64,000 bases of DNA from Rhodothermales bacterium (GCA_965261255.1 CBDHCQ010000004.1:3150604-3214603), one strand, 5' to 3'; shown: positions 3,571 through 12,167, counted from the first letter of the stretch. The notes: generated by a model from the sequence alone, not told the origin. A program made the numbers and translations.

Positions 3571-5193
3571 TCAACGAGCCACTATGGGCTCCTTTCGCCC
3601 GCTCCCAAAAGCTTTCCTACGAAGGCGGAGCACTGGTGCGGCTTGCTTTCGTTTGTACTCGGTCCGGTCCACCATGGATATGATCGACTCAACCAGTTTT
3701 CCTGCGGACCCGGTGAGTGCAATTATTTCGTCGACGCTTTGCTGCCCCTCAATGTAGCGCTTGAGAATCTCGTCAAGTACTTCATACGGTGGCAAAGAAT
3801 CCTGATCTACCTGGTTTGGTCGCAGTTCAGCAGACGGCGGTTTGGTGATTGAGGATTCCGGGATAAGCTCACCGGACGCGTTTATTAATCTGGCCAACTC
3901 GTAAACCTCGGTTTTATAGAGATCTCCGAGAACAGCAAGCCCTCCGTTCATATCGCCATAAAGGGTTGCATATCCTGTGGCCAATTCGCTTTTGTTGCCA
4001 GTGGCGAGCACCATCCCATTGAATTTATTGGCGAAGGCCATGAGAAGGGTCCCCCGTGCACGGGCCTGGATATTTTCTTCGGCAACATCTGCGTCCAAGC
4101 CTGAAAATTGATCTTTCAGCGCATGATTAAACGCATCAATGACCTTGTGAATCTGGATTGTATGCAATTCAATTCCTAGGTTTGAAGCCAGCTGGCTCGC
4201 ATCTTCCAGTGATCCTCTCGAAGAGTACGCAGAAGGCATAGCTACACCAACCACACGCTTTGGTCCAAGAGCCTGTACCGCCAGCGCAGCAGTCACTGCA
4301 GAATCTATTCCGCCGCTCAATCCTACGAATACCTGCTCCAACACACCAGTTTTTTCTACGTAATCCAGAATCCCCAGCTTCAGTGCTTCCAGTACTTGCT
4401 GGGTCGGGGATACGGAGGCTGGTCCTGAGCCTGACAGAAGGCTGGAATCCCATATGAGCAACGTTTCCTCAAATGGAGCAGCTTCCAGCACCTGACCACC
4501 CTGGACTACGCAGCTTCGTCCATCAAAGATCAGGTCTGTATTGGCACCAACCAGATTGGCGAAGACATAGGGGCGACCATACCGTTGCCAGACCGTCTCC
4601 ATGAGTGCGTACCGCTCAAAATGCTTATCAATGGCAAATGGAGAGGCACAGAGGTTGATAAAAAGATCAGGAGTTTGACTGGCCAGTGTAGCGATGGGAT
4701 CATGTGTGTACGGCTGACGGCCGGACTCTCGTACGTTCCACAGATCCTCACAAATATGTACACCCAGCTTAAGACCCTGCCAGCGCAGCACCATGGGATC
4801 TGCACCTGGGGCAAAATGCCGCTGCTCATCAAACACATCATAAGTCGGCAAAAGCTGCTTGTGGCATACACCCGCACAATCACCATTCTCGTACAGGTAG
4901 GCCGCGTTGTGGAGCGGTTTGCCGTGTGCTGGGTTACGGGCCAGCCCTCCTAGAAGTACTCCCAGATTCTCAGGAAGCGTCTGTGCAAGGCACTCCCGCG
5001 TCTTCTGTTCACGCGCAACAAAATCCTCGGATTCCAACAAATCCAGTGGAGGATAGCCTGTGAGCGTAAGTTCTGGAAAAACCACGAGGCTTGCACCTAG
5101 GTCCCTGGCTCTTCGGCAATAATCCGATACCTTGTTTGCGTTCCCGCGTAAATCGCCAACGATCGTGTTTATTTGTGCCAATGCCAACTTCAT
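3571..5193 (-). CDS. nadE: Glutamine-dependent NAD+ synthetase
   Basis: N-terminal CN-hydrolase domain (FPELTLTGYPP, HICEDLW) plus C-terminal NAD synthetase with PP-loop GLSGGIDSAV. Start moved to ATG 5193 (MKLALAQINT), 15 codons inside the track ORF. Confidence 0.95.
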   Translation of the reverse strand: MKLALAQINTIVGDLRGNANKVSDYCRRARDLGASLVVFPELTLTGYPPLDLLESEDFVAREQKTRECLAQTLPENLGVLLGGLARNPAHGKPLHNAAYLYENGDCAGVCHKQLLPTYDVFDEQRHFAPGADPMVLRWQGLKLGVHICEDLWNVRESGRQPYTHDPIATLASQTPDLFINLCASPFAIDKHFERYALMETVWQRYGRPYVFANLVGANTDLIFDGRSCVVQGGQVLEAAPFEETLLIWDSSLLSGSGPASVSPTQQVLEALKLGILDYVEKTGVLEQVFVGLSGGIDSAVTAALAVQALGPKRVVGVAMPSAYSSRGSLEDASQLASNLGIELHTIQIHKVIDAFNHALKDQFSGLDADVAEENIQARARGTLLMAFANKFNGMVLATGNKSELATGYATLYGDMNGGLAVLGDLYKTEVYELARLINASGELIPESSITKPPSAELRPNQVDQDSLPPYEVLDEILKRYIEGQQSVDEIIALTGSAGKLVESIISMVDRTEYKRKQAAPVLRLRRKAFGSGRKEPIVAR

Positions 5194-5239
5194 GCAGGAT
5201 CCAGTGAAAACGGTTAAGTCGTATTTTCCAGAATACACA

Positions 5240-5262
5240 ATTTAATTCTCGGGCAAACACTA
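5240..5262. repeat. Left copy of a perfect 23-bp direct repeat ATTTAATTCTCGGGCAAACACTA
   Basis: Identical 23-mer recurs at 10787-10809 in the same orientation. The two copies bracket the beta-propeller tandem array. Confidence 0.9.
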
Positions 5263-5613
5263 GATATCAACCTGCCGTAGATCACGGTTCGACCCGTCCA
5301 AATTGGTTTTACCGCAATTCGTGCGGAAGGATTAATTCTGGGCTCCTCAAGTCTTGAAGTGCATACACAGGCTTAACTTGGAAAGGTTGCCCTTAGACTG
5401 TGATCCGACAACAAATATTATACCGAGCAGCGCTACCAGCAGATTGATTTCAAAAAGTGCCACCTGCTTGGGTGTGAATACTCCTATAAATTCTCCACCC
5501 ATCCCTTTTCATGCCTCCGTCGTCTGACGTCTACGAAATCAATACCAGCTCCCCAAATCTACCAGCAGTCCTGGGCCTCAGTAGTTTCTGTGACCCATCT
5601 TCCTGGTGCTACG

Positions 5614-6741
5614 TCAAAAATCGACCGAGTACATCACGACCAGATGCTCACCGGATTCATTGCGCAGGGTACCGTAGGCCAGCGCGTTGGCGGTATCAAT
5701 CACGTACAAAGCTAGGGTTCTTGGAAGCAGAACCTGACCGATCAACCTGCCCTCAGAATCAAGTACTTGCCACCGTGCTTCGCTGGCGGGGGCCTCAACG
5801 TAGTCTTTGATCCAGATGTTATCCTGATCATCAATTACGAAGTACCTGTACGCAGGCTTGAACTCAGGGTACATCTTGCGAGCATCCGCGTCTATCTGCG
5901 CGGGGATATCGTTGCGTGCTAAGGCCACAGGATCGTGGGGCCGCCGAATAGTTCGGACCGTATCACCTGCCAGTGATGTCACTAAGATGTCAATTTCCGC
6001 ATTCAAACCCGAGTAGAAAAGCTGACTGGCACTCAATCCGAACACCGAGTTTGGGGCGAACTTGATTATCTCCACGATTGGACTGCCATCGGGTCCGAGG
6101 CCAACATACAGATCTAAGTTCGGCAGGCGAGCGAGTTCGCGGATACGCTCACCCGCCGAAGACACAAGAACGACGTAACTGTGTCGGGGCTTCTCTCTGT
6201 TGTCGAATATCATCGGCATGTTGTACCGCATGATGAGGCCATTATCGGAAATCCCTACGACTGATGAAGCCGCTCCCCAGTCGTCTTCATAGAGTGGGAA
6301 CTGAATCTGGCGCACATACGTGAAGTCTGTTGGATCGTACACACGCAAGATTCTTTCGCTCGGATCCATAACGTAGACTGAGTCGGATAGGCCCACATCC
6401 ACATCACTCACAGAGACATATTCTCCTGGACCCTCACCCACCCCACCGACAGAACCAAGCCATTCCCCGTCCATCGAGAAAACAGCCACAGAAGGTGGTT
6501 GTCGGTCTGCGATTAGGATTCTATCCACAGAATCCACAGCCAAGCCCGCGATTTCACCGAATAGGAAGGCGTTTTCGTCCGTGTCTTCACCCAGGCGAAG
6601 GATTTCGGTAAATACTATTTCTGCCTCCTCTGCACGGGGCTGCCCGACTAACGTGCTACTGGGCAACACCGTGATGAAGAAAACGGTCAGCGCCACTTGG
6701 ATTATCCGCAGACGCTGACACAAACCCTGACTGGTCGCCAT
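5614..6741 (-). CDS. Secreted beta-propeller-like protein, paralogue A1 (NHL/TolB-like six-bladed propeller family, 'GEGPGEY' motif)
   Basis: Start placed at ATG 6741 (MATSQGLCQRLRIIQVALTVFFITVLPSSTLVG = signal peptide); the track ORF extends 63 codons further upstream only for lack of a stop. Repeated blade pattern hhDxxxRIhhxDxxxxxVxVFxxDGxxLxSxG. Confidence 0.8.
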   Translation of the reverse strand: MATSQGLCQRLRIIQVALTVFFITVLPSSTLVGQPRAEEAEIVFTEILRLGEDTDENAFLFGEIAGLAVDSVDRILIADRQPPSVAVFSMDGEWLGSVGGVGEGPGEYVSVSDVDVGLSDSVYVMDPSERILRVYDPTDFTYVRQIQFPLYEDDWGAASSVVGISDNGLIMRYNMPMIFDNREKPRHSYVVLVSSAGERIRELARLPNLDLYVGLGPDGSPIVEIIKFAPNSVFGLSASQLFYSGLNAEIDILVTSLAGDTVRTIRRPHDPVALARNDIPAQIDADARKMYPEFKPAYRYFVIDDQDNIWIKDYVEAPASEARWQVLDSEGRLIGQVLLPRTLALYVIDTANALAYGTLRNESGEHLVVMYSVDF

Positions 6742-6766
6742 CCTAGGATTTGGAGAGGTATCTATC

Positions 6767-6783
6767 CAAAATGCCACATTTTG
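6767..6783. promoter_or_regulatory. Palindrome CAAAATG-CCA-CATTTTG, 26 nt upstream of the A1 start
   Basis: Perfect 7-bp inverted repeat with a 3-nt spacer. Conserved upstream of A2; the same half-site occurs upstream of B2 and B3. Confidence 0.4.
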
Positions 6784-7442
6784 AGCAGAAATAGTTATCG
6801 AAGTAAAACCAGATCGTACCATCCGGATCCTGTTGAGCATAAATCTAACAATCCCGCTCACCATCATTGGTAACTTAGATTTGGTGAAGACTTTCGCCCG
6901 CTTCGTGCGGGCTGTTCGTCGTGGGGCCAATATAAGGCGATCCCAACTCAGGTCCGATTACGATCCGTGCAATCTGGGGCCCAAGGTGAATCGGATTGAT
7001 CCGATGCAGTGGAACCGGCTGGGCGTGGATAAAATCGGTCAACCAAGCAAGCTCTGCCGCGCTTTCACAATAAGCCCTTGACATTGTAGTGCTTGCCGGT
7101 CAGACTACCGGCTATGGTCCACAACAACCCATATTGGCAACGCTCCGATCATCGGTGTCCGACTTTTCCGCACTGCGTGACGAGCATCGCGACAAAGGCC
7201 ACAACGTGACCAGTCGCGCGGTGTGCGATCTGTCGTTGTAGGAATCGTGAACAGCTTCTGTGTAGGGGGCTGGGGAAACCGGGATCCCTGCCGCGAGATC
7301 AGACTGTTACGGACGAAACTCCGTGGCTATAGCCTACATGCCACCTCGCCACTCGATATCAACAAAATCAATGCCAGCTACCCAAATCCACCCGTGGCCC
7401 TAGGCCTTAGAAGTTTCTGTGACCCATCTTCCAGGTGCTACG

Positions 7443-8573
7443 TCAAAAATCGACCGAGTACACCACGACCAGATGCTCATCGGATTCATTACGCAGTCTA
7501 CCGTAAGCCAGTGCATTGGCGGTATCAATCACGTACAGTGTTAAGGTTCTTGGAAGCAAGACCTGACCGAGCAACCTGCCTTCAGAATCAAGCACTTGCC
7601 ACCGCGCTTCGCTGGCGGGGGCCTCAACGTAGTCTTTGATCCAGATATTATCCTGATCATCAATTACGAAGGTCCTATACGCAGGCTTGAACTCTGGGTA
7701 CATCTCGCGAGCTTCCCTGTCTAACCACGCGGGGAAATCACGTTTCAAGGGTACACGATCGTGGGGCCGCCGGATAGTGCGGACTGTATCACCGGCCAGT
7801 GATGTCACCAAGATGTCAATTTCCGTATTCAAACCCGAATAGAAAAGCTGACTGGTACTCAATCTGAACACCGAGTTAGGGGCAAACTCGATTTCCTCCA
7901 CGGTTGGACCGCCATCAGGTCCGAGACCAACATACAGACCTAAGTTCGGATGGCGAGCGAGTTCACGGATACGCGTACCCGCCCAAGACGTGAGAACGGC
8001 GTAACTGTGTCGGGGCTTCCCTACGTTATCGGGCAGTATCATCGTGTTGTACCGCATGATGGGGCCATGATCGGACACCCCTACAGCTGATGAGACGCTT
8101 CCCCAGTCTTCGTCGTACGGAAATCGAATCTGGCGCACATATGTTAAGTCTGTTGGGTCGTACACATGCATGCGGGGTTCGCGCCCACTCCTGCCTTCCA
8201 TAACATAGACTGTGTCGAATGGGCTCACATACACGCCACGCACTTCCTCATATTCTCCTGGACCCTCACCCTTCTCACCGACCGAACCGAGCCATTCTCC
8301 GTCCATTGAGAAAACAGCTACCGAAGGTGGTCGTCGGTCTGCAACTAGGATCCTATCCTTAGAATCCACAGTCAAGCCCACGATTTGACCGAACAGGTAG
8401 GCGTTTTCGTCCGTTTCCTCACCCACGCGAAGTATTTCGGTGAATGTTATTTCTGCCTCCTCTGCGCGAGGCTGCCCGACTAGAGTGCTACTGGGCAACA
8501 CCGTGATGAAGAAAACGGTCAGCGCCACTTGGATTATCCGCAGACGCTGGCACAAACCCTGACAGGTCGCCAT
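7443..8573 (-). CDS. Secreted beta-propeller-like protein, paralogue A2
   Basis: Same layout as A1. ATG 8573 gives MATCQGLCQRLRIIQVALTVFFITVLP... High identity to A1 and A3 over the full length. Confidence 0.8.
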   Translation of the reverse strand: MATCQGLCQRLRIIQVALTVFFITVLPSSTLVGQPRAEEAEITFTEILRVGEETDENAYLFGQIVGLTVDSKDRILVADRRPPSVAVFSMDGEWLGSVGEKGEGPGEYEEVRGVYVSPFDTVYVMEGRSGREPRMHVYDPTDLTYVRQIRFPYDEDWGSVSSAVGVSDHGPIMRYNTMILPDNVGKPRHSYAVLTSWAGTRIRELARHPNLGLYVGLGPDGGPTVEEIEFAPNSVFRLSTSQLFYSGLNTEIDILVTSLAGDTVRTIRRPHDRVPLKRDFPAWLDREAREMYPEFKPAYRTFVIDDQDNIWIKDYVEAPASEARWQVLDSEGRLLGQVLLPRTLTLYVIDTANALAYGRLRNESDEHLVVVYSVDF

Positions 8574-8598
8574 CCTAGCATTTGGAGAGGTGTCTATC

Positions 8599-8615
8599 CA
8601 AAATGCCACATTTTG
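8599..8615. promoter_or_regulatory. Palindrome CAAAATG-CCA-CATTTTG, 26 nt upstream of the A2 start
   Basis: Identical to the A1 site. Confidence 0.4.
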
Positions 8616-9273
8616 AGCAGGAATAGTTAACGCAGTAAAACCGGATCGTACCATCTGGGTCCTGTTGAGCATAAATCTCACAATCCCGTTCACCGTCATT
8701 GGTAACTTAGATTTAGTTACAACTTTCGTCCGCTCCGTGCGGGTTATTCGTCGTGTGGCCAATATAAGGCAATCCCAACTCAGGTCCGATTACGATTCAT
8801 GTAGACTGGGGCCCAGGGTGAATCGGATTGATCCGATGCAGTGGAACCGGTTGGGCGTGGATAAAATCGGTCAACCAAGCAAGCTCTGCCGTGCTACTAC
8901 AATCAGCCCTTAGCATTGTAATTCTTGCAGGTTAGTCTACGGGCTATGGAATCACAACAATCCATACTAGCAGCGCTCCGATCATCAATGTCTGCGCTGT
9001 CTGCACTGCTTGACGGGTATCGCGACAAAGGCTGCCACGCGACCGGTCGCGCGGTGTGCGATCTGTCGTTGTTGGAATCGTGAACAGCTTATGTGCGGGG
9101 GCCGGGAAACCCGGGTCCCTATCGCAATATCAGGCTGTCACGGACGAAACATCGTGGCTATAGCCCACAAGCCGCTTCGTCACTCGACATCTACGAAATC
9201 AAAGCCAGCTACCCAAATCCACCAGTGGTGCCGGGCCTTAGTAGTTTCTGTGGCCCATCTTCCTGGTGCTACG

Positions 9274-10539
9274 TCAAAAATCAACCGAGTACACCACGAC
9301 CATATACTCACCGGATTCACTACGCAGGGTACCGTAAGCGCGTGCGTTGGCGGTATCAATCACGTACAATCTCAGGGTTCTTGGAAGCAGAACCTGACCG
9401 ATCATCCTGCCTTCAGAATCAAGCACTTGCCACCGTGCTTCGCTGGCAGGGGCCTCAACGTAGTCTTTGATCCAGATATTATCCTGATCATCAATTACGA
9501 AATACCTATACGCAGGCTTGAACTCTGGGTACATCTCGCGAGCTTCTTTTTCTAACCACGCGGGGAAATTGCGTTTCAAGGGTACACGATCGTGGGGCCG
9601 CCGGATAGTGCGGACTGTATCACCTGCCAGTGATGTCACCAAGATGTCAATTTCCGTATTCCACCCCGAGTAGAGAAGCTGACTAGCACTCAATCCGAAC
9701 ATCGAGTTAGGGGCATACTCGGCTTCCCGCACGAATGGGCCACGATCAGGGTCGAAACCAACATAAACGTCTAAGTTCGGTAGGCGAGCGAGTTCGCGGA
9801 TACGCTCTCCCGCCCAAGACGTAAGAACGACGTAACTGTGCCGGGGCTCCCCTACGTTGTCGGATAGTACCATCGTACTGTACTGCATGATGGGGCCATG
9901 ATCGGAAACGCCTACGGCTGATATGGCGGCTCCCCAGTCGTCTTCGTTGTGTGGGAATCGAATCTGGCGCACAGGCGTGAAGTCTGTCGGGTCGTACACA
10001 TGTAAGATATTTTCCCTCCAATCCATAACGTAGACTGAGTCGGATGGGCCCACATCCACATCATTCACAGAGACATATTCTCCCGGACCCTCACCCACGC
10101 CACCGACAGAACCGAGCCATTCTCCGTCCAACGAGAAAACAGCAACCGAAGGTGGTCGGTGGTCTGCAATTAGGATTCTATCCTTAGAATCCACGGCCAA
10201 GTCCCCAATTTGACCGAATAGGTAGGAATTTTCGTCCGTGTCCTCACCCAGGCGAAGTATCTCGGTGAATGCTATTTCAGCCTCCACTGCACGAGGCTGC
10301 CCGACTAAAGTGCTACTGGGCAGTACCGTGATGAAGAAGACGATCAGCGCTACTTTGATTATCCGCAGACTGCTGGCACAAAAAAATACTAGTCGCCATT
10401 CTGGGAGTCGGGGAGCTTTTTCTGCACAATAGCACAGATTGAGCAGAAAACGAAAACGTGCATCGCTCTCCTCTGCACGAAACGATGTCGGGAGCGGACC
10501 AACCAGATTTCCTAACCTAAGCATTGAGTTCCATTGCAT
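9274..10539 (-). CDS. Beta-propeller-like paralogue A3; the canonical signal-peptide start is out of frame (possible pseudogene, or uses an upstream ATG)
   Basis: The family ATG (10397-10399) is +1 relative to the long ORF. There are 31 nt versus 30 nt between the ATG and CTGCGGATAATC, with a T7 run (A7 on plus, 10380-10386). The ORF stays open only via a non-homologous 47-codon extension. Confidence 0.55.
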   Translation of the reverse strand: MQWNSMLRLGNLVGPLPTSFRAEESDARFRFLLNLCYCAEKAPRLPEWRLVFFCASSLRIIKVALIVFFITVLPSSTLVGQPRAVEAEIAFTEILRLGEDTDENSYLFGQIGDLAVDSKDRILIADHRPPSVAVFSLDGEWLGSVGGVGEGPGEYVSVNDVDVGPSDSVYVMDWRENILHVYDPTDFTPVRQIRFPHNEDDWGAAISAVGVSDHGPIMQYSTMVLSDNVGEPRHSYVVLTSWAGERIRELARLPNLDVYVGFDPDRGPFVREAEYAPNSMFGLSASQLLYSGWNTEIDILVTSLAGDTVRTIRRPHDRVPLKRNFPAWLEKEAREMYPEFKPAYRYFVIDDQDNIWIKDYVEAPASEARWQVLDSEGRMIGQVLLPRTLRLYVIDTANARAYGTLRSESGEYMVVVYSVDF

Positions 10540-10786
10540 CTAAACATGAAAATTACGCCTAATCGACCCGATACGCCCCAAAATTCGCTGAAACAAGCCC
10601 CGAGTCTAAAAGGGTTAAGAGGGTCCCCAGGACATCGAAAACTGGCCGAGCAACCCAAGGTACAGCTGAAATCCTGCTGAAACTTGACCTACCTACACGC
10701 AACAGGCCAGATGTATGCAACGAACAACCCAGAGTACGGCTGAACTCCTACTCAAACCCCTCCTGAAACACATTGAACTGACCTAT

Positions 10787-10809
10787 ATTTAATTCTCGGG
10801 CAAACACTA
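10787..10809. repeat. Right copy of a perfect 23-bp direct repeat ATTTAATTCTCGGGCAAACACTA
   Basis: Identical to 5240-5262. Lies 21 nt upstream of the amidohydrolase ATG at 10830. Confidence 0.9.
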
Positions 10810-10829
10810 TACAATAACGGTAGTCAGCA

Positions 10830-12167
10830 ATGCATTATCCCCTCAGAAACATGAAAACGCAAATAGGCTTATTGATTGTTGCCGCCGGGTTGTTTACCTG
10901 CGGCTTAGTAAACGCACAGGAAATCACCGCATTTACTAATGTGACGGTGCTTCCTATGGACAGCGACCGGGTGCTGGACGCACATACAGTCCTTGTTGAG
11001 GGCGATCGCATATTGTCTGTTGGATCAGATGTTGAGGTGCCTCTCGGGGCACAGATGATTGATGGTACAGGCAAGTTTCTATTGCCGGGCCTTGCAGAAA
11101 TGCACGGTCATATACCACGACCAGATCAGCCTGAACAGTACACCGAAGATGTGCTTTTTCTGTATGTGGCCAACGGAATTACGACCGTCCGGGGAATGCT
11201 TGGTGCCCCTGGACAGCTGGAACTTAAGCAGCGTGCAAACAATAGCGAACTTATCGCACCTACACTCTATTTAGCCGGCCCCAGTTTTAACGGAAGTTCT
11301 GTGAACTCACCGGAGCAGGCCGTCGCAATGGTGCACGAACAGGTGAAAGAAGGCTGGGATCTGCTGAAAGTGCTTACTGGCATGTCGAAGGCCGAATTTG
11401 ATGCCATGGCACGTACAGCGGCCGAAGAAGGGATTCGTTTTGGCGGCCATGTGCCTGCAGATGTGGGATTGATGCACGCACTGAATATGGGACAGGAGAC
11501 CTTTGATCATGTGGACGGCTATGTGGAATACATCCGCGCACAGGACCTCCCAGAGACCGAGGCACTGCAAGAGGCTATTGCACTCACTAAAGAGAAGGGT
11601 GGCTGGATTGTGCCGACCATGGCATTCTGGGAAGTCCTGTTTGGTGTCATTGATCTGGAAGACCTGCGGGCGTACGACGAATTGAAGTATATGCCGCCAG
11701 CGATTGTGGAAAGGTGGTTTCGAATAATTGAGGGACGACAGAATCACCCCCAATATGACAGGGCCGCGGCTTTGGATTTAATCCATACCCGTATGCGTGT
11801 GTTGCGCGCACTGCACGAGGCGGATGTTCGTATCCTTATGGGCACTGATTCCCCGCAATTCTTCAGTGTACCCGGATTCTCTTTGCATCGCGAACTTGAA
11901 CGAATGGTGGATGCGGGAATGTCCAACTATGCGATCCTTCATACAGGTACACGGGCTGTAGGTGAATATTTTGCAAACGAAGACACATTTGGAACGATCA
12001 GCGAGGGCGCACGGGCGGACCTGTTGCTGGTGGATGGCAATCCCCTTGAGGACCTCTTGCACCTGCAGGAGCTGTCCGGGGTTATGGTGCGTGGCAATTG
12101 GTACACCCGTACATTGCTGGACGAACACCTGGAAAGCATTGCAGAAGCCCATCGTAACTCTAACTGA
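10830..12167 (+). CDS. Secreted amidohydrolase-family metallohydrolase
   Basis: N-terminal signal peptide. 'LLPGLAEMHGHIP' HxH metal motif. C-terminal 'GARADLLLVDGNPLEDL' typical of amidohydrolase_1/3. Confidence 0.85.
   Translation: MHYPLRNMKTQIGLLIVAAGLFTCGLVNAQEITAFTNVTVLPMDSDRVLDAHTVLVEGDRILSVGSDVEVPLGAQMIDGTGKFLLPGLAEMHGHIPRPDQPEQYTEDVLFLYVANGITTVRGMLGAPGQLELKQRANNSELIAPTLYLAGPSFNGSSVNSPEQAVAMVHEQVKEGWDLLKVLTGMSKAEFDAMARTAAEEGIRFGGHVPADVGLMHALNMGQETFDHVDGYVEYIRAQDLPETEALQEAIALTKEKGGWIVPTMAFWEVLFGVIDLEDLRAYDELKYMPPAIVERWFRIIEGRQNHPQYDRAAALDLIHTRMRVLRALHEADVRILMGTDSPQFFSVPGFSLHRELERMVDAGMSNYAILHTGTRAVGEYFANEDTFGTISEGARADLLLVDGNPLEDLLHLQELSGVMVRGNWYTRTLLDEHLESIAEAHRNSN

Follow-up and report, generated by a model that had tools for sequence, protein, structure and literature searches.

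We analysed a stretch of 64,000 nucleotides from a Rhodothermales bacterium (GCA_965261255.1 CBDHCQ010000004.1:3150604-3214603; the whole stretch is called the window below), in which two identical copies of a 23-bp sequence (the 23-mer) bracket three tandem beta-propeller genes lying between nadE and an amidohydrolase gene. The 23-mer, ATTTAATTCTCGGGCAAACACTA on the plus strand, occurs at 5240-5262 and 10787-10809 in the same orientation; both matches are exact, and they are the only ones in the 64-kb window at up to three mismatches (100 shuffles gave none). An initial annotation made from the sequence had described this repeat, and its positions, its orientation and its gene calls (nadE, three propeller genes and the amidohydrolase) are all correct. 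The features of the locus are as follows (nt, nucleotides; aa, amino acids; ORF, open reading frame).

5240-5262, minus strand: nadE-proximal copy of the 23-mer, which reads TAGTGTTTGCCCGAGAATTAAAT towards nadE and ends 46 nt before the nadE ATG
10787-10809, plus strand: amidohydrolase-proximal copy of the 23-mer, an exact match, which ends 20 nt before the ATG at 10830
5263-5271, no strand assigned: 9 bases weakly similar (5/9) to 10810-10818, an ungapped extension of the 23-mer
5194-5239, minus strand: nadE leader, the 46 nt from the 23-mer to the start codon, highly conserved, with a small palindrome (TTTTCCGGAAAA in relatives) after the 23-mer
5263-5613, minus strand: unique flank between the nadE-side 23-mer and A1, including a called 51-aa ORF at 5347-5502
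5614-10539, minus strand: three tandem DUF5128 six-bladed beta-propeller genes (A1 5614-6930, A2 7443-8762, A3 9274-10539; Pfam PF17170)
6931-7442 and 8763-9273, minus strand: two homologous internal array spacers
10540-10786, minus strand: unique flank between A3 and the amidohydrolase-side 23-mer, of which about 60 nt nearest the 23-mer are conserved in all relatives
3571-5193, minus strand: nadE, glutamine-dependent NAD+ synthetase, 540 aa, the left neighbour (Pfam PF02540, NAD_synthase, and PF00795, CN_hydrolase; homologues 540-542 aa)
10830-12167, plus strand: amidohydrolase, 445 aa, the right neighbour (Pfam PF01979)

On the 5' side of the 23-mer the similarity between the two copies ends abruptly, and on the 3' side it extends without gaps over 9 more bases, for a total of 32 nt at 88%; these bases, at 5263-5271 in the nadE-side copy, may be the decayed rest of a duplication that was somewhat longer. 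Aligned locally against each other, the two flanks of the insert give z = 6.4, and the remaining flank sequence is without similarity. A longer duplication on the gene-proximal side was considered and rejected, as TGTGTTTC.GGA follows both copies at differing offsets and is not significant (p = 0.13-0.44). Raising the limit to seven mismatches adds a single window match, at chance level, within the amidohydrolase gene, and no further copies were found in the window, in the loci of relatives or among metagenome hits outside the nadE-amidohydrolase locus. The initial annotation had allowed that the 23-mer might prove to be a frequent motif genome-wide; in the DNA covered here it is not a common one. 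It had also listed a degenerate third copy at 5331-5343: the sequence is present there, but relatives have GCCCAGATTTAAT, GCCCAAATTTAAT or GCCCGAACTAAT at that site, and we do not count it as a copy, the resemblance being mostly specific to the window. The 23-mer with its surroundings has no predicted fold (0 kcal/mol), no dyad symmetry and no internal repeat, and a dif site, an attC site or a REP hairpin was rejected on this lack of folding and dyad symmetry.

Relatives of the locus were gathered by one nadE-based scan of species-representative genomes (75 loci), by protein-identity look-ups, which added the strain of the window itself (L104, 99.95% identical) and the relatives L102 and L105-L107, and by a DNA-pattern scan of metagenome contigs, which added L076 and L080. 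We treat 13 of these loci as close relatives (L001-L006, L019, L080, L102, L105-L107 and L076; nadE 87-98% identical). The nadE homologues place the window in an uncultured Rhodothermales/Rhodothermaceae lineage of metagenome-assembled genomes, many of which appear, from the names of the records, to have been sampled from sponges or corals. In six more distant Rhodothermales (L010, L011, L020, L021, L023 and L024; nadE 57-69% identical), nadE and the amidohydrolase gene stand back to back with their start codons about 55-66 bp apart, and the propeller genes are therefore an insertion into this spacer, as had been proposed, with the repeat bracketing exactly the inserted DNA. None of the six empty sites holds a recognisable 23-mer, their spacers being too diverged to align with it.

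Among the close relatives, the nadE-side 23-mer is kept in all 13 and is adjoined by one to three propeller genes in 12, and the amidohydrolase lies on the far side of the array in all 10 loci that extend that far. The thirteenth locus, L107, has neither propeller nor amidohydrolase genes upstream of nadE and keeps about 320 nt of the upstream sequence (window 5191-5511), 23-mer included; it is a rearrangement, not an empty site.

The repeat is independent of the number of propeller genes that it encloses. Genomes with a single propeller gene (L002, L006, L004, L019 and L080) retain both copies, at a spacing of 1891 bp in L002 and about 1730 bp in L006 and L080, which indicates that the repeat marks the limits of the insertion itself and did not arise from the array. 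This observation bears directly on the idea that a further array unit, now truncated, begins with the nadE-side copy, every unit having once started with a 23-mer of which the internal copies have decayed. The spacing of the copies in the window, 5547 bp, is indeed near three array periods (the period is about 1830 bp, with units 83-89% identical), and in L005 and L105 the spacer between two propeller genes holds a diverged third 23-mer together with the start of the upstream flank. However, the internal junction in L005 runs about 14 nt past the 23-mer towards the amidohydrolase, which points to ordinary tandem duplication with its breakpoint outside the repeat, and the internal spacers of the window resemble neither the 23-mer nor the outer flanks to a significant degree. 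(A hint in a MAFFT alignment of degenerate internal 23-mers in the window proved to be noise when compared with shuffled local alignments.) Together with the single-gene relatives, these findings largely refute an origin from the array, which we regard as the least probable of the explanations considered here. The array itself is the outcome of ordinary tandem duplication and has nothing unusual about it. The database gave 56 hits to its protein family, almost all of them above 50% identity and within this lineage, so the family is narrow; in a tree the propeller copies cluster by lineage, so that copy number is dynamic.

The two copies of the 23-mer have had different fates. The nadE-side copy has zero to two mismatches across the 13 close relatives. 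The amidohydrolase-side copy has one or two mismatches in L102, L002, L003 and L080, and one substitution plus a 1-nt deletion in L006; it is decayed in four other genomes, with six mismatches in L004 and L106 and eight in L005 and L019. A neighbour-joining tree of the three flanking genes, rooted with L010/L011, has the form ((L004,L019,L005),(window,L002)),(L003,L006). Because the amidohydrolase-side copy is near-canonical both in the basal pair (L003 and L006) and in the pair formed by the window and L002, the duplication predates the clade, and on this topology the decayed copy is the derived state of the L004/L005/L019 subclade. The insert is old, being present in every close relative but the rearranged L107, and is most likely not an active cassette.

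Searches for features of mobility were negative throughout the insert. ORFs on both strands of 5263-10786 have Pfam matches only to DUF5128, with no recombinase or transposase among them, in agreement with the initial annotation. The annotated neighbours in L102 and L104 include no recombinases, the window holds no tRNA genes, and no inverted repeat joins one end of the insert to the other; up to 1.2 kb away, no inverted partner was found for either 23-mer. Nowhere else in the window, nor in any of the loci retrieved, is there another copy of the insert's non-coding sequence, so that an origin by tandem duplication followed by deletion within ±10 kb is unsupported. The only distant propeller homologue available with its context (L101, 61% identical) lies at an unrelated locus without the 23-mer and without the flanks, which gives no sign that the motif travels with the gene. 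An insertion sequence of the DDE_Tnp_1 type, with 20-bp inverted ends (CAATGTAGTGGGATTTTGTG), lies some 5.6 kb past nadE in L102, a relative at 91% identity (L102:17211-19176); it was considered and rejected, as its ends are unrelated to the 23-mer.

The nadE-amidohydrolase spacer has received other DNA as well, and looks like a recurrent landing site for lineage-specific genes. In L018 it holds an unrelated 860-bp insert (L018:9142-10000), and on the amidohydrolase side of this insert lies a decayed copy, about 135 bp long, that takes in the spacer and ~95 nt from the start of nadE (alignment score 79, versus a shuffle mean of 24 and standard deviation of 3); the L018 insert, too, is without a second copy in its own locus. 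The nadE fragment in L018 is closer to the nadE of L010 than to its own (score 114 versus 79). In L017 the same spacer (L017:7006-10000) contains two tandem units of about 1.2 kb, each with an ORF of 120-127 aa encoding a coiled-coil/membrane protein, and no flanking duplication was seen there.

These observations allow us to judge the proposal that the 23-mers are attachment (att) sites, that is, the attL and attR cores of a cassette that has no recombinase of its own and was put in place by a site-specific recombinase whose gene lies elsewhere. A short identical core at both ends of an insert is what is found around integrative islands and cassettes (those of tyrosine and serine recombinases, Xer/dif and integron attC systems), and here a perfect direct repeat surrounds a discrete insert between conserved genes, in a spacer that other insertions (L017 and L018) have also hit. 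The window differs from those systems in lacking a recombinase, a tRNA or dif-like target, a dyad and a second integration site. No integrase was found in the insert or among its annotated neighbours, and there is neither a tRNA nor a dyad resembling dif or attC; the other inserts in the spacer do not use the 23-mer, that of L018 being accompanied by a duplication of about 135 bp of a different stretch; the one cargo homologue elsewhere (L101) lacks the site; and the insert is anciently fixed, across species up to 27% apart at fourfold sites. The mobile cassette of the initial annotation, with its att site, is accordingly not borne out: the insert is old and fixed, has no recombinase, inverted ends or tRNA target, and no second locus with these flanks was seen. 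We consider an origin as att cores very unlikely.

The pattern of conservation suggests instead that the copies matter for the genes beside them. Between the window and its relatives, fourfold sites of the three flanking genes diverge by 15-27%, the 130 nt upstream of nadE by 3-10%, and the 100 nt beyond the amidohydrolase start by 7-18%. The nadE-side copy, judged by this comparison, is part of an upstream block of about 200 nt (window 5191-5401, ~210 nt) under purifying selection, and this block and its 23-mer remain with nadE even in the rearranged L107. No covariation was detected in the block by RNAalifold, and Rfam gave no match to it or anywhere over 5000-11000.

On the amidohydrolase side, nine genomes share on the plus strand an invariant CTGACCTATATTTAATT, 15-16 variable positions, an invariant ACAAT, 5-6 variable positions and AGTCAGC(R)ATG. 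In the window this reads TTTAAT (10788-10793), 16 nt, TACAAT (10810-10815), 14 nt and ATG, an arrangement resembling -35 and -10 boxes and present at no other place in the window; in the outgroup L010, a similar TTAACC-16-TATAGT stands immediately ahead of the amidohydrolase start. The same blocks can also be read on the minus strand as TTGTCA-N18-AAATAT, facing A3. On the nadE side, TTGATA stands just outside the copy, with only weak -10 candidates inside. We infer from this that the copies act as putative promoter parts. The alternative offered by the initial annotation, that the duplicated piece is a promoter fragment lying upstream of the minus-strand genes nadE and A3, is thus probably part of the answer, as the conservation fits promoter blocks; its choice of strand does not carry over so well, the amidohydrolase-side copy fitting a plus-strand amidohydrolase promoter at least as well as a minus-strand A3 promoter.

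A stronger form of this idea would make the 23-mer a shared regulatory site, an operator or promoter module kept by selection that co-regulates nadE and either the first propeller gene or the amidohydrolase, the bracketing of the insert being incidental. Both copies do lie upstream of minus-strand genes, the nadE-side copy is strongly conserved, the blocks on the other side can be read as facing A3, and the RNAalifold output pairs a substitution at position 14 of the 23-mer in L002 with a change in the nadE leader. Yet the 23-mer has no operator-like dyad or internal repeat, the middle of the amidohydrolase-side copy drifts in one subclade (six to eight mismatches) with the genes intact, and neither the window nor the metagenome pattern scan yielded a third site. 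Convergence on 23 identical bases is moreover implausible without a duplication, so that common regulation would explain why the copies were retained and not how they arose; as an account of the repeat we find it unlikely.

A different line of evidence comes from the resemblance of the 23-mer to the ends of small mobile elements. Read towards nadE, it agrees at 17 of 23 positions, in register from the outer TA, with the terminal inverted repeat of a TA-flanked 294-bp element of L009; copies of this element lie at L009:2548-2841 and L009:9333-9626, and one of them sits 375 nt upstream of nadE. Matches to the ends of elements in L081 and L084 (17/19-18/21) are likewise in register from the outer TA. 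A degenerate pattern covering the 23-mer and the L009 terminus found 25 metagenome contigs, two of which (L076 and L080) are the nadE-amidohydrolase locus in relatives, and at least seven of the other hits are elements of 122-270 nt with inverted partners and TA flanks. The family as a whole, 122-294 nt long and with the terminal repeat TAGTGTCTGTCCGRAAATTCA, is represented in L009, a Rhodothermales relative, and in metagenome contigs of varied kinds (L084, L087/L090, L091, L097, L099 and L081). In L087, tandem short units (doublets of about 122-137 nt) stand beside a unit of about 970 nt with a gene for a Y1_Tnp (IS200-like) protein and hairpins of the GTAG type. By our estimate, about three matches at up to six mismatches would be expected at random in the 2.7 Mb of positions scanned; an in-register match to a terminus is unexpected by chance, and we therefore treat the likeness as probably real. 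The interiors of the elements do not match the flanks in the window, and literature searches on Rhodothermus promoters and for the terminal-repeat string gave nothing relevant.

The likeness raises the possibility that each 23-mer is a solo end that goes back to a small mobile element (of the type of miniature inverted-repeat transposable elements, or MITEs, or of REPINs), a relic end having been in the spacer already or two ends having been placed there, with the bracketing brought about by a transposase or by recombination between element copies. The in-register match to the L009 terminus with the same outer TA, the metagenome elements with inverted partners and TA flanks, the L087 copy coding for Y1_Tnp and the L009 element 375 nt upstream of nadE all speak for it. 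It is well known that the ends of insertion elements can supply an outward -35 box, which fits the reading of TTTAAT given above. Small TA-flanked MITEs include the Correia elements of Neisseria, and hybrid promoters are formed from outward -35 boxes in the ends of insertion sequences; the window resembles these systems in that the 23-mer matches a MITE terminus in register and that a -35-like hexamer stands 16 nt from an external -10-like hexamer. It also recalls REPIN/RAYT systems, in which doublets are mobilised by a Y1 transposase, through the relative of the motif that bounds tandem doublets and a Y1_Tnp-coding copy in L087. The window is unlike either system in having single ends in the same orientation, with no element body, no hairpin and no inverted partner within 1.2 kb, in its motif being unrepeated in the DNA examined, with no extra copy in the window, the relatives' loci or the metagenome hits outside the locus, and in showing no RAYT gene; neither transposase type was found nearby, the element interiors are unlike the flanks, and the similarity was found post hoc. 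We hold solo ends to be a rather unlikely origin of the repeat, and still more unlikely, to a degree close to that of an array remnant, is the bolder version in which the same-orientation 23-mers are functional single MITE or REPIN ends that define a recombinase-less cassette moved by a transposase encoded elsewhere (Y1/HUH or IS630-like).

The interpretation that we favour, with a probability of roughly 0.5, is that the repeat is a target duplication made at the insertion and retained because each copy overlaps promoter-like sequence. Both 23-mers would go back to a single short segment of the ancestral spacer between nadE and the amidohydrolase gene. In the common ancestor of this cluster of Rhodothermales species, a propeller gene carrying flanking sequence of a few hundred bases would have entered this short control region between divergent genes, with duplication of 23-32 bp of the region, so that each of the formerly back-to-back neighbours kept one copy of the overlapping core. 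The copies would then have specialised, the one on the nadE side within a constrained block and the one on the amidohydrolase side retaining ATTTAAT and the adjacent external ACAAT, with the 16 nt between them free to drift. The cargo would have expanded and contracted to one to three copies by ordinary tandem duplication with breakpoints not in the 23-mer. nadE is normally essential, and because of this probably only those insertions that left both genes their upstream sequence would have persisted, a form of survivorship.

We infer that the duplication was produced by the insertion event itself, for example by templated insertion or by repair with a staggered return point. Candidate mechanisms are repair or replication that returns to the target at a variable point, and integration of a circular fragment by one crossover at a short homology. 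As in target-site duplications, a direct repeat of the target brackets exactly the inserted DNA, and relatives have empty sites; unlike them, the repeat in the window is 23 (perhaps 32) bp long, compared with 2-14 bp for transposases, with no terminal inverted repeats inside and no transposase. A transposase with a fixed stagger is unlikely, both because the duplication is too long and because L018 has the same geometry with a duplication of about 135 bp, which suggests a process of variable length.

Several points weigh against this interpretation. A duplication of 23 bp exceeds any target duplication made by a transposase, and the mechanisms given above are proposals. The initial annotation had suggested looking for an empty site with a single 23-mer: empty sites were found in relatives, but none among the genomes examined has a single 23-mer, the genomes concerned being about 30% diverged in coding DNA, with spacers that cannot be aligned with it. 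The reconstructed spacer before the insertion is about 110 bp, versus 55-66 bp in the outgroups, if the amidohydrolase starts at the methionine equivalent to that in the outgroups. Neutral drift since before the root of the clade would have left the two copies different at several positions. The amidohydrolase-side copy shows no demonstrable constraint over its full length: it has about 6 changes versus a neutral expectation of about 11 (a rough estimate, in the subtree of the window, L002, L102, L003 and L006), which is not a significant difference, and the perfect identity of the copies in the window may be partly luck. A sigma-70 consensus scanner called no promoter at either copy, and the -35 box on the amidohydrolase side scores 3/6. 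Finally, a scar of insertion leaves unexplained the in-register match to the MITE terminal repeat. A relic element end that was present in the ancestral spacer and was duplicated later would reconcile the scar with the likeness, and might explain why a -35-like box lies close to the repeat's inner end.

The remaining observations concern the genes and flanks of the locus. The amidohydrolase gene is the first of a run, conserved by synteny in relatives, with TPR/peptidase_MA and DUF4159 genes, and the G+C content of the insert is the same as that of its surroundings. In the flank at 5263-5613, the 88 nt adjoining A1 are common to the other array units. The 51-aa ORF of this flank (5347-5502, minus strand) has a hydrophobic segment and no Pfam match; it is annotated as a gene in the public records of L104, L103 and L102, and its region (5402-5525) is absent from L003, L006, L076 and L080. 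The propeller ORFs open about 65 codons before a conserved signal-anchor (extensions 6742-6930, 8574-8762 and 10350-10539), and the amino-terminal extension of A3 is not conserved with those of A1 and A2; the true starts are probably near MATSQGLCQRLRII, about 65 codons into the ORFs (~6741 for A1). A distant DUF5128 paralogue stands just 3' of nadE, in either orientation, in L105 (12413-13609) and L004 (14213-15262), and that of L004 is about 33% identical.

The locus illustrates how a compact promoter region lying between divergent genes can take up a new gene, with the overlapping core of the region duplicated so that each neighbour keeps its upstream sequence, and with one copy afterwards drifting except in its promoter-like blocks. 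The propeller proteins of the cargo, secreted or anchored, form a narrow family whose copy number changes fast; like the lineage-specific repeat-protein arrays of host-associated bacteria, these signal-anchored six-bladed propellers vary between one and three copies among close species. The finding is one of ordinary genome evolution and leaves current understanding unchanged, and only the likeness to mobile-element ends could lead further: were the 23-mers functional MITE or REPIN ends, they would represent a route by which host-associated Rhodothermales insert, amplify or excise repeat-protein genes.

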